From: a virus
Taxonomy: Duplodnaviria > Heunggongvirae > Uroviricota > Caudoviricetes
Virus record (IMG/VR): IMGVR_UViG_3300014770_000007
Location: 1-39,589 of that record
Length of the DNA stretch: 39,589 nt
Strand: one strand, 5' to 3'
The position numbers were made by a program, and so were the translations under genes. How positions within the stretch are numbered: the first letter of the stretch is position 1; each line of letters begins with the position of its first letter. This document shows, in pieces, positions 15,907 to 38,275 of the stretch. Under the pieces are notes generated by a model, which had not been told where the DNA came from, did no database searches, and saw only the letters and a list, made by a program, of their open reading frames with translations.

Positions 15907-15948
15907 AGGGTAGTTGTGTCGATGTAATCCGTCAAGAATTATTTTACG
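15907..15948 (-). promoter_or_regulatory. promoter P1 of the conserved family (drives head/tail operon leftward)
   Basis: Minus strand: cgtaaaataattcTTGACGgattaca...-17 bp-TACCCT. Confidence 0.55.
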
Positions 15949-16040
15949 TATAGATTCATGAGAAGTATGCGACTCCCTATACCTTTTAAACCTCTTCTAC
16001 TTACAACGACTTTTACTACTTATACCACTCTTCTATTTAT

Positions 16041-16128
16041 TTATGTTTTCTATGTCATCTATAAAAAGATAATAAAAAGAATAAGATAGAGAGGGGTTGG
16101 TCAAAAAATAAACATGACGAAATCTATG
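16041..16128. repeat. conserved ~90-bp intergenic block, copy 1
   Basis: ~90% identical to 32951-33040 (tatgttttctatgtYatctatRaaaagataataaaaagaataagatagRgaRgggttggtYaaaaaRtaaacatgacgaaatctatg). Confidence 0.8.
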
Positions 16129-16141
16129 AATCTATGATCTA

Positions 16142-16162
16142 CTAATACAGAACGTGTATTAG
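16142..16162. promoter_or_regulatory. palindromic operator-like site
   Basis: ctaatacaGAACGtgtattag, perfect 8-bp inverted arms. Confidence 0.5.
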
Positions 16163-16202
16163 CTGCAACTCAAAATCATGAAACCTATGTAAAACCATGT
16201 GT

Positions 16203-16227
16203 AGCTAATACAGAACGTGTATTAGCT
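16203..16227. promoter_or_regulatory. palindromic operator-like site (25-bp perfect palindrome)
   Basis: agctaatacaGAACGtgtattagct; centre 63 bp from the first copy; ends 19 bp upstream of the -35 of P2. Confidence 0.55.
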
Positions 16228-16232
16228 ATATC

Positions 16233-16274
16233 TTTAAAATAATTCTTGACGAATTACAGACGGTAGGGTATCTT
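16233..16274 (+). promoter_or_regulatory. promoter P2 of the conserved family
   Basis: ctttaaaataattcTTGACGaattaca...-17 bp-TATCTT. Confidence 0.6.
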
Positions 16275-16320
16275 TATCACGGGAAGCAGCGATGGGTTGC
16301 TTATGAACGAGGGTGTGAAA

Positions 16321-16704
16321 ATGGGAATGTATACCGAATTAGTGTTGAAGTGTCAGATTAAAGAAAATGTACCTGTGGATGTGAAAGCTGTTATTGCACA
16401 TATGTTCTGTGGTGAAAAAGAACCAGAGAAACTACCACAACATAAGTTTTTCAGTCTCCCCAGATGGAATTTTATTGGTAGTTGTAGCAGTTTTTATCAT
16501 CACCCGGAAGTAATAAATAGTTGCCCTAAATTTGATTTCACCGATACTCAATATATTTTTAGTCGTAGCGATATTAAAAATTATGATGGTGAGATTGAAC
16601 AATTTATCGACTGGTTGAAACCGTATGTTGATGCTGAAGATGGTGCGTGTATTGGTTGGACGTGGTACGAAGAAGAATTACAACCAAAATTAATCATTAA
16701 ATAA
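16321..16704 (+). CDS. hypothetical protein
   Basis: Track ORF 16297..16704 (TTG); ATG 16321 has GAGGG 7 nt upstream (ATG 16303 also possible). Confidence 0.5.
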   Translation: MGMYTELVLKCQIKENVPVDVKAVIAHMFCGEKEPEKLPQHKFFSLPRWNFIGSCSSFYHHPEVINSCPKFDFTDTQYIFSRSDIKNYDGEIEQFIDWLKPYVDAEDGACIGWTWYEEELQPKLIIK

Positions 16705-16719
16705 CTCCGAGACGCTAAA

Positions 16720-35598: not shown

Positions 35599-35600
35599 AT

Positions 35601-35936
35601 TCAATACCCTTTTAATTTTCTACACTCAGGACAGCGCCATCTACCTTTTTGATAAACTCGCGCATGACCACGTTTACATTTATTGGTTACCAGTGATATA
35701 CCGAGACGTGACGCTTTAATGTGCACCGCTTCAACGTCCCGGCGAAGGTAATACGCTATTTCGTCCGCACTGATCTTTCCTGCATTAATTTTTAATAACG
35801 CCAGATCTCGTGCGGACCATTTCAAACCGTTACGAGGGAACCTGTTAGTCGAATACTCATACACGAACACACCTTTTACGAAGCTGTATGGCGCGATTAT
35901 TGGCCTGCTGGAGAACCATCTTCCATCCCACAACAT
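35601..35936 (-). CDS. putative DNA-binding protein (HTH-like segment + C-terminal CxxC); start uncertain
   Basis: Track ORF 35601..35996 (GTG) overlaps the upstream gene by 140 nt; first ATG at 35936; WSARDLALLKINAGKISADEIAYYLRR has HTH character; C-terminal RWRCPECRK. Confidence 0.3.
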   Translation of the reverse strand: MLWDGRWFSSRPIIAPYSFVKGVFVYEYSTNRFPRNGLKWSARDLALLKINAGKISADEIAYYLRRDVEAVHIKASRLGISLVTNKCKRGHARVYQKGRWRCPECRKLKGY

Positions 35937-36345
35937 CGTGCATATCAGATGAGCACGACTGATTGGAGAATTTGACCAACATTGTTTCAGCCACACCAGC
36001 TAAACTATCAAGTTCGCTGGCCCGTACTTCAGCCAGGAAAGAGTCGGTGGCTGGAGTTTCAGTGAGCTCACTAACCCAGTCGGGTCCAAATTCTTCTGCG
36101 CACATCTTATCGAACTCACGCTCAGATTCTTTCAGCTTTGCATTCTCCGCCGCCAGAGCCGCGCACTTGGCCTCAAGGTTATCAATCGTGATTCCAGCAG
36201 AACGACACTCCCGCAACGCCGTTTCTAGTTTTGATTCAAGTTCAGCAAATTTACGCGCCAGATATTCAGCGTTTGTTTCGTTAACTTTCAGGTCGCCCGG
36301 AATACATTTACCACGAAGAAAACCTTCCATTTCATATACAGTCAT
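35857..36345 (-). CDS. hypothetical coiled-coil protein
   Basis: 162 aa; ATG directly after upstream stop. Confidence 0.45.
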   Translation of the reverse strand: MTVYEMEGFLRGKCIPGDLKVNETNAEYLARKFAELESKLETALRECRSAGITIDNLEAKCAALAAENAKLKESEREFDKMCAEEFGPDWVSELTETPATDSFLAEVRASELDSLAGVAETMLVKFSNQSCSSDMHDVVGWKMVLQQANNRAIQLRKRCVRV

Positions 36346-36570
36346 TTAACGCACCTCGACATCAATTATTAAATCTTCTGGTACTGTCACCACAACGCGG
36401 TCGTTTTCGCAAAATGGTGACAGCGGTTCCTCTTCCGGTTGTAAGCGAATGGTAAGTGTTGCCCCGTGGTAATTGATATAGCGTACCCAATACCAATCGT
36501 TAAACACTTCAATCTTGTCACCCGGTTTAATATCACGGGCAACGGTTGGATTTATCAGTCGGATAGTCAT
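36346..36570 (-). CDS. hypothetical protein
   Basis: 74 aa; GAGGTGA RBS. Confidence 0.45.
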   Translation of the reverse strand: MTIRLINPTVARDIKPGDKIEVFNDWYWVRYINYHGATLTIRLQPEEEPLSPFCENDRVVVTVPEDLIIDVEVR

Positions 36571-36863
36571 ACTTTCACCTCACGGTTAGAACAGCCACGT
36601 TCAATCATCCAATCCTGAACAGGAAAGCGACTACCGAATACTTTTGTTTCTTTATCGTCACAGAAACGCCAGTTTTCCGCTTCAGGCCAGTTTAATTTAA
36701 CATGGTGTTCTGCCTGTTTTTGATCATCAACATCGACCAAAGCAACAAGCGTTGCACCTTTTTCAACATGTCCTGTACACCACCACGCGAGAATCTTTTC
36801 AGTAGGCGGGTAATTGATCGGACGATAATCATCGGTTGGTTGATACCAAGAGATCCATTTCAT
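36567..36863 (-). CDS. hypothetical protein
   Basis: 98 aa; coupled starts/stops. Confidence 0.45.
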   Translation of the reverse strand: MKWISWYQPTDDYRPINYPPTEKILAWWCTGHVEKGATLVALVDVDDQKQAEHHVKLNWPEAENWRFCDDKETKVFGSRFPVQDWMIERGCSNREVKV

Positions 36864-37063
36864 CAGAACACCTTTTTAATTAATTGATAGATCAGTACAA
36901 GAATCGACAGTACCAAGTAAAAAGGCCAGAAGATCGTGATTAGCACAAAACAAATTATTTGAATTTTCCAACCCGGGTTAATTCGTGTTAATTTTGCATC
37001 AATGTAATCTAATAATGCATTCAGAACACCCAGTATCAGATACAATGACAATAATTTAATCAT
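36863..37063 (-). CDS. small membrane protein (two TM helices, charged C-terminus)
   Basis: 66 aa; holin-like topology but no endolysin nearby. Confidence 0.45.
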   Translation of the reverse strand: MIKLLSLYLILGVLNALLDYIDAKLTRINPGWKIQIICFVLITIFWPFYLVLSILVLIYQLIKKVF

Positions 37064-37224
37064 TTCTTTTTACTCCCGGTTAGTTTAGCAATCCAACGAT
37101 TTTCATTAACGCTGGGAAAACTGTTATTGAACTTACACTGACGTTCTTCTTCTTCTTTTGTCAACGGTTTAAATTTAGAACGACAGGTCAATGTACCGTA
37201 AATTGATGTTAAGTTGTCTGACAT
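37060..37224 (-). CDS. small hypothetical protein (54 aa)
   Basis: TAAAGGAGA RBS 8 nt upstream of ATG 37224; ATGA-coupled to next gene; not in track. Confidence 0.4.
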   Translation of the reverse strand: MSDNLTSIYGTLTCRSKFKPLTKEEEERQCKFNNSFPSVNENRWIAKLTGSKKK

Positions 37225-37237
37225 AAACTAGTCTCCT

Positions 37238-37435
37238 TTAGTGCGCAGGTGGTTTTTGACTTTCCATTACACTTTTCCAGCGGTTTTGCGCCGCGCTGGG
37301 CTTTTTGCAAAAACCACAATCCATCATCCCGTAATATTTTATTAACCCCATTCGTCGGTTGCTGAGTCTCACCCACTGCCAGACGCCGGGACCGTTTCTA
37401 CGAACTAACAGAATCTTTGCTTTACGGTTTTTCAT
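37238..37435 (-). CDS. small basic protein
   Basis: 65 aa; ATGA-coupled to ParB-like gene; CGFC motif. Confidence 0.4.
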   Translation of the reverse strand: MKNRKAKILLVRRNGPGVWQWVRLSNRRMGLIKYYGMMDCGFCKKPSAAQNRWKSVMESQKPPAH

Positions 37436-38199
37436 AACCGGTGCTCCTTCAGTGCTTTTAACGCTTCAAACTGTTCAGCAGTAAGTTCAACCAGGACTTT
37501 ACCACCTTCCTGGCGGGTTGCAGACCATTCACCACGGATTGCTTCCACTGCAGACCGTACCAGTTTAGCGGGTGGACGACGCGTGACTACAGGTTCTTTA
37601 TCACCTGCTTTAAACTGGCGAATGGCTGCTGATGCGCTGATTTCACCATTCTGGATCCGGCGTTTAAGTTCCAGCGGCATATCAAGAATATTCAGTTGTT
37701 CGTAAACGTGCTGAACGGTTTTACCGACCTGTGTAGCGATCTGCTCAACACTCATGCCATATGAACGGAAACGACCGTAAATAACAGCACGTTCAACAGG
37801 GGACCACGGTTTACCTTCATTACCTTTTAACAGTGTCAGGGTCTGTTGTAGTTCGTCACCGGACGATTCAACAACATCTACTGTCAGAATCGGCGTCCCG
37901 GCTTCAATAGCTGCCAATACGCCACGTAAACGATGCTCACCATCCTGGACATACGGAACACCGTCAACAACCTGTACCACGATGGGTGGAACGAAATCGC
38001 CGTTGGTATAAGCCTGACGAAAGTTTTCAATGTGTGCCAGTGCTGCTTCAGTTTCCCAGTAGTTGTCGGTAAACACACCGCGTGGGTTATGTCCTGGACG
38101 AATCTTGATAATACGCGGATCAATGCGATATGCGTTACCACGTTTTACGTTGGTTTTATCGGTATCAGACAGCTTGCGAAGGGAGTTAATGTTAGCCAT
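37432..38199 (-). CDS. ParB-like nuclease-domain protein
   Basis: 255 aa; VQDGEHRLRGVLAA matches the ParB N-terminal DGxxRxxA box; first gene behind promoter P10. Confidence 0.7.
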   Translation of the reverse strand: MANINSLRKLSDTDKTNVKRGNAYRIDPRIIKIRPGHNPRGVFTDNYWETEAALAHIENFRQAYTNGDFVPPIVVQVVDGVPYVQDGEHRLRGVLAAIEAGTPILTVDVVESSGDELQQTLTLLKGNEGKPWSPVERAVIYGRFRSYGMSVEQIATQVGKTVQHVYEQLNILDMPLELKRRIQNGEISASAAIRQFKAGDKEPVVTRRPPAKLVRSAVEAIRGEWSATRQEGGKVLVELTAEQFEALKALKEHRL

Positions 38200-38233
38200 T
38201 TGTGTTTAGCCTCATGTGTGTTAACTGAGGCTA

Positions 38234-38275
38234 ATTATCGGGGAGGTTTGGTAATCTGTCAAGAATTATTTTAAG
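38234..38275 (-). promoter_or_regulatory. promoter P10 of the conserved family (leftward)
   Basis: Minus strand: ccttaaaataattcTTGACAgattacc...-17 bp-GATAAT. Confidence 0.55.

Follow-up and report, generated by a model that had tools for sequence, protein, structure and literature searches.

A Repeated Sigma-70-Like Promoter Motif Heads the Accessory Cassettes of a 9NA-Like Siphophage and Probably Marks an Early/Middle Promoter Class

Results

Organization of the Window and Position of the Motif Copies

The DNA analyzed here (hereafter, the window) comprises positions 1 to 39,589 of the IMG/VR record IMGVR_UViG_3300014770_000007, and the subject of this work is an extended promoter-like motif that occurs in it in ten copies. 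By megablast, the window was assigned to the 9NA-like siphophages (Nonanavirus/Sashavirus): in pieces it is about 95% identical to the Escherichia coli phages PJ16, KarinMuster/Bas82, AVIO78A and PDP46, 83–88% identical to the Salmonella phages Sasha, Sergei, Solent and 9NA, and about 80% identical to Klebsiella phages. Gene names were taken from the annotation of these relatives. The structural genes lie on the minus strand and comprise the head-tail operon (from 15876 leftwards), a head-morphogenesis gene (17842-18801), the portal gene (22699-24054), TerL (25745-27508) and TerS (about 32025-32660, the true start being at about 32660). They are separated by plus-strand clusters of small genes, each of which opens with the motif. 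The clusters end at bidirectional terminators facing the 3′ ends of structural genes, namely one at 22671-22692, between the cassette 20207-22666 and the end of the portal gene, two hairpins at 25624-25736, between the ends of the cassette 24188-25618 and TerL, and one at 33990-34010, which closes the ParB-like operon.

All ten copies listed in the original prediction were present, within 1 nucleotide (nt) of where it had placed them. On the plus strand, the copy at 16233-16274 (TTGACG at 16246-16251, 17-bp spacer, TATCTT) precedes the cassette 16297-17775, the copy at 20130-20172 (TTGACA, 18-bp spacer, TAACAT) the dUTPase cassette, the copy at 24124-24165 (TTGACG, 17-bp spacer, TATGCT) the cassette 24188-25618, divergently from the portal gene, and the copy at 27572-27613 (TTGACA, 17-bp spacer, TATGCT) the cassette 27757-29380, divergently from TerL. 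Four extra copies are internal to the plus-strand clusters: 21902-21943 (TCGACG, 17-bp spacer containing the hairpin TTACAC-N6-GTGTAA, TAACCT) serves 21974-22666, 29342-29383 (TTGACG, 17-bp spacer, TAGACT) serves 29389-30948, which includes RdgC, 30956-30997 (TTGACG, 17-bp spacer, TAAATT) serves 31018-31453, and 31444-31486 (TTGACG, 18-bp spacer, TATAAT) serves 31522-31916. On the minus strand, the copy at 38234-38275, also named 38250(-), heads the ParB-like operon (38199 down to 34017) with TTGACA, a 17-bp spacer, GATAAT and a 5′ hairpin AGCCTCAGTTAACACACATGAGGCT. Copy P1 at 15907-15948, likewise on the minus strand, begins CGTAAAAT and consists of CGTAAAATAATTC, TTGACG (15935-15930), a 17-bp spacer and TACCCT, followed by the late-like ACCCTGTGGTCAAG and by an open reading frame (ORF) at 15876-15529. 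The motif had been said to head every rightward cassette, which proved right for nearly all of them: the 258-amino-acid gene at about 33209-33985, divergent from TerS, is the sole rightward gene without it and is preceded instead by a late-type element, ACCCGTGGTTAAAT, at 33180-33193 (plus strand).

A degenerate eleventh copy, TATAACTATTCTTGACCTATTGTT followed by GTGACAGAAC, lies on the minus strand within the head-tail operon (12005-12040, match 12014-12029), and a generic promoter is annotated at the orthologous site of AVIO78A. It starts a non-coding stretch of about 460 nt, 11549-12014(-), at whose place the Klebsiella phage Carvaje has a tRNA-Ser gene; no tRNA or Rfam family was found within the window.

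Statistics and Anatomy of the Motif

The core TAAAATAATTCTYGAC is free of mismatches in every one of the ten copies. With up to 3 mismatches it gave 13 matches against 1.1 expected, and TTGACRGATTACA, with up to 2 mismatches, gave 12 (the ten sites and two weak extras) against 3.0 expected; neither count was reached in any of 100 shuffles of the sequence. In the alignment of the ten copies, near-maximal information extends over 26 consecutive positions, TTTAAAATAATTC-TTGAC-rg-ATTaCA, and drops abruptly to background on both sides. The -35 hexamer reads TTGACR in nine copies and TCGACG in one (21902). A TAnnnT hexamer follows 16–18 bp past the -35 in 9/10 copies, for which the chance, with a background probability of 0.052 per site, is about 1e-11. 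The consensus originally put forward stands for the core and, nine times in ten, for the -10, and has to be relaxed for copies 20130, 21902, 24124, 29342, 38250(-) and the start of P1; the spacer variants are ATTGCA in copies 20130 and 24124, GTTTACA in 29342 and an ATTACC end in 38250(-).

Setting TTGACR at -35 to -30, TAAAATAAT spans -46 to -38 and is an A/T tract with an A run, as is characteristic of the proximal subsite of the UP element consensus (PMC4390567). All ten copies are co-oriented with an ORF whose Shine-Dalgarno sequence lies 20–45 nt downstream. This arrangement of A/T block, TTGAC and -10 at 17–18 bp supports the earlier proposal of sigma-70-type promoters. RNA polymerase has no known specific contact with spacer bases upstream of -15 (PMC2613000), and the conserved stretch does exceed the known polymerase contacts, as had been claimed. 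The flanks of different copies are unrelated in sequence, and it is the same positions within the motif that vary in every genome compared. A 6-bp spacer hairpin occurs in only two of the ten copies (21902 and 30956), with minimum free energy z-scores from -2.2 to +1.6.

Other ways of parsing the motif were rejected. TAAAAT is not a plausible -10, as no conserved -35 lies upstream of it; a tandem second -35 (TTRCA) has no consistent hexamer 17 bp downstream; and the dyad-symmetric operator TAATTC-TTGAC-GRATTA fails in a Proteus phage, where the left half reads TATnGC and the right half is unchanged. None of the consensus sites of IHF, Fis, CRP, TyrR and LacI-family proteins, compared by eye, fitted the motif. 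The MotA box found at -30 in T4 middle promoters is absent: the consensus -35 is present and no TGCTT box was seen in the motif.

Genes Downstream of the Motif

The genes served include dUTPase (20370-20873), RdgC (30025-30948), a ParB-helix-turn-helix protein (37432-38199), an HD-domain hydrolase, a SLOG/YAcAr protein and many ORFans without Pfam matches, and virion genes lie downstream of the motif in the window at P1 only. A position-weight matrix built from the ten copies returned 13 strong copies in the complete genome of AVIO78A, among them a tandem pair before the DNA polymerase operon, one copy after the primase gene and one heading a small gene that is flanked by the tail tube and chaperone genes. 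P1 aside, no copy was found ahead of late virion genes or lysis genes in the complete relatives scanned. Judged by position, the gene content served is that of an early/middle class.

Conservation Among Relatives

The same consensus occurs at syntenic junctions in 9NA (10 strong copies) and in Carvaje (9). Orthologs were located for copy 16233 (AVIO78A 18662, 9NA 15859, Carvaje 15848), copy 38250(-) (AVIO78A 52178, 9NA 50412, Carvaje 51691) and copy 31444 (9NA 1441); copy 24124 has orthologs in AVIO78A, 9NA, Carvaje and the Proteus phage PM-CJR, and copy 27572 in four relatives. Between orthologous copies of the window and 9NA or Carvaje, the 26-mer is 92% identical, as against 63% for the 40 nt upstream and 72% for the 40 nt downstream, a pattern that indicates purifying selection on the 26-mer and an old class of sites.

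PM-CJR, whose TerL is 60% identical in protein and which has the same interleaved gene architecture, carries about 11 copies of TTTAAAATAT-n-GC-TTGAC-R-n-ATTRCA followed by TAnnnT. The fixed spacing of TTTAAAATA, the C before the -35, TTGAC and ATTRCA is kept, and three bases within about -41 to -37 are changed in all copies together. In the Enterobacter phage Mulvp2 (TerL 50% identical), TAAAATAATTGTTGAC occurs in about six copies, and the conserved spacer after it is a different one, AG-YGTGYA. Synteny extends at five sites from the E. coli phages to a Proteus phage.

The original prediction had offered a recently duplicated module as one cause of the likeness among copies. This does not hold as a general cause, because the motif is kept at syntenic sites and in distant relatives. 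Duplication does seem to apply to two sub-families, since extended leaders are confined to them: copies 24124 and 27572 are 84% identical over 58 nt, including the leader ATCAAATGAAC, and copies 30956 and 31444 have their ribosome-binding region in common. Homology with these relatives frequently breaks off at a motif or shortly past it, for example at 27597, 29368 and 38272 with 9NA and at 30935 with AVIO78A and Carvaje. For each of AVIO78A, 9NA and Carvaje, 4–7 ends of high-scoring segment pairs are found no more than 50 bp from a motif, where about 1.7 would be expected (these zones being 5% of the region) under a null that ignores the intergenic excess of junctions. The pattern is reminiscent of the part that PeSL (promoter-early stem-loop) cassettes have been proposed to play in T4-type phages (PMC2839356).

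Two syntenic degenerate copies (AVIO78A 46634(-), 9NA 45041(-), Carvaje 44694(-); AVIO78A 39898(+), 9NA 38216(+), Carvaje 37905(+)) keep the A/T block and GATTACC/GTTTACC with CTAAAC or CTATAC in place of TTGAC, and are oriented antisense into replication genes.

The core sequence was absent from the searchable literature, which did not extend to the main 9NA-like genomics paper (Zeng et al. 2019). The authors of the AVIO78A genome reported seven generic sigma-70 promoters by consensus scanning, some of them at motif sites (the ortholog of copy 20130 included), and did not describe the extended motif; in the 17-kb stretch examined of the Sasha record, terminators and ribosome-binding sites are annotated and promoters are not.

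Copies Outside 9NA-Like Genomes

The full 26-mer is also present outside any 9NA-like genome, as a single copy in each of several temperate phages or prophages of Klebsiella and E. coli, some of them P22-like (exact copies in our loci L086, 4737-4762; L034, 12556-12581; L039, 1578-1603; and L130, 4001-4037). There a tailspike or BRO-N gene precedes it, and hicB/hicA-type or other morons follow directly. Because single copies head hicAB-type morons in prophages, their placement implies that the module would be active with host polymerase alone. Exact matches to a 16-mer in IMG/VR were mainly single chance matches, true relatives amounting to a few contigs only.

A general host promoter was rejected, the degenerate 25-mer occurring once in 185,579 species-representative genomes and that match being a CRISPR spacer. 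This spacer, the 32-nt TTAAAATAATTCTTGACGTATTGCACTGATGT, belongs to a type I-F CRISPR array of Yersinia pekkanenii (NZ_CQAZ01000023), beside cas6f/csy genes (L131, 1152-1176). A spacer directed against a motif repeated 10–15 times per phage genome would have many partial targets.

Copy P1 Is a Sub-Clade Insertion

In 9NA, Carvaje and Sasha, the head operon opens with a gp37 homologue preceded by TATGTACCCGTGGTTAACTCGCGAGGAAAC, and the motif copy is absent. The window shares with AVIO78A and PJ16 an insertion of 37 nt, P1 (A/T block, -35 and spacer), placed exactly ahead of an ACCC(T)GTGGT element, and the TACCCT originally read as the -10 of P1 is part of that older element. The same three genomes share the extra 115-amino-acid ORF (15876-15529) downstream of P1. 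From these comparisons, P1 is an acquisition specific to the E. coli sub-clade. It had been taken as a sign that the class is not simply early; since the insertion is limited to one sub-clade, P1 does not show that the class serves late genes. P1 may well send early transcripts into the head operon, given the overlap of the first ORFs and the absence of a predicted terminator at this point.

Late-Type Elements and Possible Back-to-Back Junctions

Candidate late elements were kept from 14-mer statistics and phylogenetic footprints, short-pattern scans being dropped as too noisy. The 14-mer ACCCGTGGKWAWMT occurs exactly three times in the window and, with up to 2 mismatches, 11 times against 3.0 expected. 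On the minus strand, a late-type element ACCCGTGGTAAACT-GTACAGAAC precedes TerL (27540-27553) and contains TAAACT (27545-27540), 26 nt beyond the A/T block of copy 27572, and a portal-side -10-like TATAAC/TAACAT (24092-24099) lies 24–26 nt beyond the A/T block of copy 24124. Phylogenetic footprints add, also on the minus strand, ACCCGTGGGTATCT-GTGGGAAAC before TerS (32698-32711), GTAATTT-GTACAGAAC before the tail chaperone (about 8160-8180) and GTGATATAAT with a 5′ hairpin before the head-morphogenesis gene (18832-18840), as well as ACCCGTGGTTAAC heading the head operon in 9NA, Carvaje and Sasha. The proposed late-class -10-like sequences are TAAACT, TATAAC and GATATAAT. The late elements resemble extended -10 promoters (TGn-TAnnnT) that lack a -35; promoters of this type function without a -35 element or activator (PMC4390567) and resist inhibitors of sigma region 4 such as T4 AsiA (PMC2613000).

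At 5/5 late-gene junctions of the Proteus phage, the strand opposite the motif carries TATAAT or TATACT precisely 26 nt past the A/T block, and the same distance recurs in the window at TerL (TAAACT) and the portal gene (TAACAT, 24097-24092). This geometry would place the A/T block also at about -39 to -50 of a late promoter, from which we infer early and late promoters set back-to-back around one common UP-like block. The motif lies 30 nt from the ATG (20099) of the gp29-like gene and about 35 nt from the helicase operon of relatives, distances too short to hold a separate promoter. Read in reverse complement, the motif at these junctions gives TTGCAA-17-TAAACT or TATGAT, as on the reverse strand of copy 20130 (TTGCAA at 20156-20151, 17 bp, TAAACT at 20133-20128). 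In AVIO78A, a divergent intergenic location is found for 5/5 ATTGCA copies and 1/8 ATTACA copies. That the reverse complement acts as a promoter there is offered as a lead only.

Side Observations in the Control Regions and Elsewhere

A 100-nt repeat with 90% identity (16029-16128 and 32941-33040) lies in the two large divergent control regions, one ahead of the head operon and the other ahead of TerS (flanks 15950-16240 and 32780-33180). Phased CATAGA/ATAGAT repeats abound in it, and several 19-bp palindromes surround it, e.g., TAATACA-CGTTC-TGTATTA and TAGTGCA-TGTTG-TGCACTA; 9NA, Carvaje and Sasha conserve the copy at the head operon. These regions could hold late-activator, origin, pac or ParB sites. 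Similar GC-rich hairpins occur at the predicted transcript 5′ ends of the head-morphogenesis gene (GGCCTCAGTGTGTTAACTGAGGCT, 18807-18830(-)) and of the ParB-like operon (the AGCCTCAGTTAACACACATGAGGCT hairpin, 38205-38232(-)), and may be 5′ stabilizers or attenuators; the former has a T run after it and was called a terminator.

Between promoter 20130 and dUTPase, about 240 nt are extra relative to AVIO78A (20010-20356) and create a 56-amino-acid ORF (20207-20377) whose beginning duplicates that of dUTPase (MTN...). The 258-amino-acid gene contains five tandem 21-bp repeats GAAGCACCTGTAGCACGAGTG at 33764-33868, and the Sasha and Sergei records annotate a "direct tandem repeat region" in the part matching window 32000-39589. 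The tape-measure gene appears as two ORFs (5914-7329 and 4254-5726) with an N run at 5803-5812 between them; the surrounding low-GC stretch of about 210 nt (5774-5987, with ten Ns) has no counterpart in AVIO78A or 9NA and is probably an assembly gap or mis-join.

Discussion

The ten elements are best explained, with a probability that we put at roughly three in four, as a conserved early/middle promoter class of a virulent 9NA-like siphophage read by host sigma-70 RNA polymerase. The A/T block TTTAAAATAATT at about -48 to -37 would serve as a promoter-proximal UP subsite for the alpha C-terminal domain, and C plus TTGAC as a consensus -35, the two together recruiting the sigma-70 holoenzyme. 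A 17–18-bp spacer follows, in which the first bases R-N-ATTRCA (about -29 to -23) are conserved, and then TAnnnT, presumably a deliberately weak -10, which would make these promoters dependent on the -35 and UP contacts. The modules would drive the plus-strand accessory cassettes, dUTPase, RdgC and the ParB-like/HD-domain operon and, in complete relatives, also replication genes. As far as their annotation goes, the complete relatives AVIO78A, 9NA and Carvaje encode neither an RNA polymerase nor a sigma factor.

Several points weigh against this explanation. P1 stands upstream of the head-tail operon with no predicted terminator between, which in this sub-clade makes the class not strictly non-structural, and copy 38250(-) has a poor -10, GATAAT instead of TAnnnT. 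No transcription start site or timing data for 9NA-like phages were found in the searchable literature. Recognition by the host polymerase alone accounts for only part of the 26 bp, because ATTRCA is conserved and has no known polymerase contact; moreover, the -41 to -36 bases shift in concert between lineages (ATTC, TnGC, ATTG), which could reflect a co-evolving factor.

These last two features can be accommodated by a composite of promoter and operator, compatible with the host-read promoter class, in which a lineage-specific DNA- or polymerase-binding protein reads ATTRCA, and perhaps -41 to -36, and switches 10–15 promoters together, for instance in a global early shut-off. A dedicated regulator of this kind, already suggested in the original prediction, may exist, and the composite as a whole we rate as less likely than not. 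It would account for the fixed distance of ATTRCA even in the Proteus relative, at bases where the polymerase makes no known specific contact (PMC2613000), for the joint base change at about -41 to -37 and for the different spacer AG-YGTGYA conserved in Mulvp2, whose enteric host has essentially the same polymerase; in the two syntenic degenerate copies (e.g., AVIO78A 46634, 9NA 45041 and Carvaje 44694) A/T block and GATTACC likewise outlast TTGAC. However, no candidate protein was identified, Pfam having given ParB-HTH, NinH and ORFans only, the Proteus version has lost the apparent dyad TAATTC-N5-GRATTA, and the single prophage copies appear to act as ordinary promoters.

Recent spread by duplication, gene conversion or insertion of a mobile cassette, rather than selection on each base, would also produce near-identical copies, and the common leaders of the pairs 24124/27572 and 30956/31444, the recent 37-nt insertion at P1, the frequent breaks of homology at or just past the motif and the exact copies in unrelated prophages all fit such a history. 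As the sole cause it is nevertheless improbable, given five sites syntenic as far as the Proteus phage, unrelated flanks, variable motif positions that are the same in every genome, and a 26-mer far better conserved in orthologs than its flanks (92% vs 63–72%). It is harder still to see the sites as something other than host-read promoters, either binding sites for the ParB-like protein or for an architectural, partition or packaging factor, or promoters for a phage-encoded polymerase or sigma factor. Sites so dispersed and nearly identical, one of them (38250) with a ParB-like helix-turn-helix protein encoded immediately downstream, might bring such a role to mind, but the motif is asymmetric, strictly co-oriented with downstream ORFs and equipped with a consensus -35 and, in 9/10 copies, a -10 at 17–18 bp; lone copies stand ahead of hicAB operons in prophages, and a polymerase or sigma gene is not annotated in the relatives. 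We regard this reading as very improbable.

Extended, repeated early promoters are already known in virulent phages, and for such a phage the motif is an ordinary feature. A close likeness is to the PeSL cassettes of T4-type phages (Arbiol et al. 2010, PMC2839356; Comeau et al. 2014, PMC4122927), which are repeated, conserved, sigma-70-like early promoters, A/T-rich upstream of the -35, set ahead of ORFans in variable regions among core genes and at indel or replacement junctions between relatives, although the junction count for the window comes from a null that ignores intergenic bias. Membership was rejected over the stem-loop that PeSLs require: the window motif has no integral stem-loop or terminator, hairpins being found in 2/10 copies with z-scores near 0. 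It also differs in conserving a specific spacer element, in cassettes lying on the strand opposite to the structural genes, with an A/T block apparently common with a divergent late promoter, in showing no sequence homology to PeSLs and in belonging to a siphovirus lineage. T4 early promoters (UP/-35/TGn/-10; PMC2613000) are similarly a phage-wide class with a consensus beyond the hexamers and a UP-like A/T tract, read by unmodified host sigma-70 polymerase, as would be the case here. Unlike them, the window motif combines a perfect -35 with a weak -10 lacking TGn, its conservation stops 7 nt into the spacer, and homologues of Alt, AsiA and MotA were not identified for the window phage. The C1 operators of bacteriophage P1 are the dispersed operator set of a global phage repressor. 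The window resembles such sets in having more than 10 near-identical asymmetric sites over promoters genome-wide, whereas its phage is virulent and without a known repressor. Twelve nucleotides of the A/T block are the reverse complement of part of the rrnB P1 UP element. With rrnB P1-type UP promoters (Ross 1993; Estrem 1998/1999, summarized in PMC4390567), the motif has in common the A-tract directly upstream of the -35 at the proximal alpha C-terminal domain subsite; it differs in having a proximal-type block only and no distal subsite, and the role of the alpha C-terminal domain is a predicted one.

The back-to-back junctions suggest a further model, more speculative than the promoter class itself and, in our estimate, unlikely as it stands. 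The 26-mer would be one half of a conserved bidirectional switch of about 75 bp, whose A/T block is the UP element both for the -35-dependent early promoter and for an opposite, -35-less late promoter with an extended or strong -10; a phage factor that targets sigma region 4, the alpha C-terminal domain or ATTRCA would shut all the early modules and so make the block available to the late genes.

Two features make the system worth an experiment, namely the spacer element, with its deep conservation, and the apparent back-to-back pairing of early and late modules, the former being a handle for a regulator search, and the two promoter classes with their complementary use of elements suggest an early-to-late switch. 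The motif is predicted to be a compact, portable and apparently very strong promoter module. The promoter class provides a hypothetical transcription map for the 9NA-like, Sashavirus, Carvajevirus and Gorganvirus phages, which have been little studied although several are in use or under proposal for biocontrol and therapy, and it would explain how small genes wedged between structural genes are independently expressed; the bidirectional switch, if true, would account for early cassettes interleaved with structural genes across the phage supergroup.

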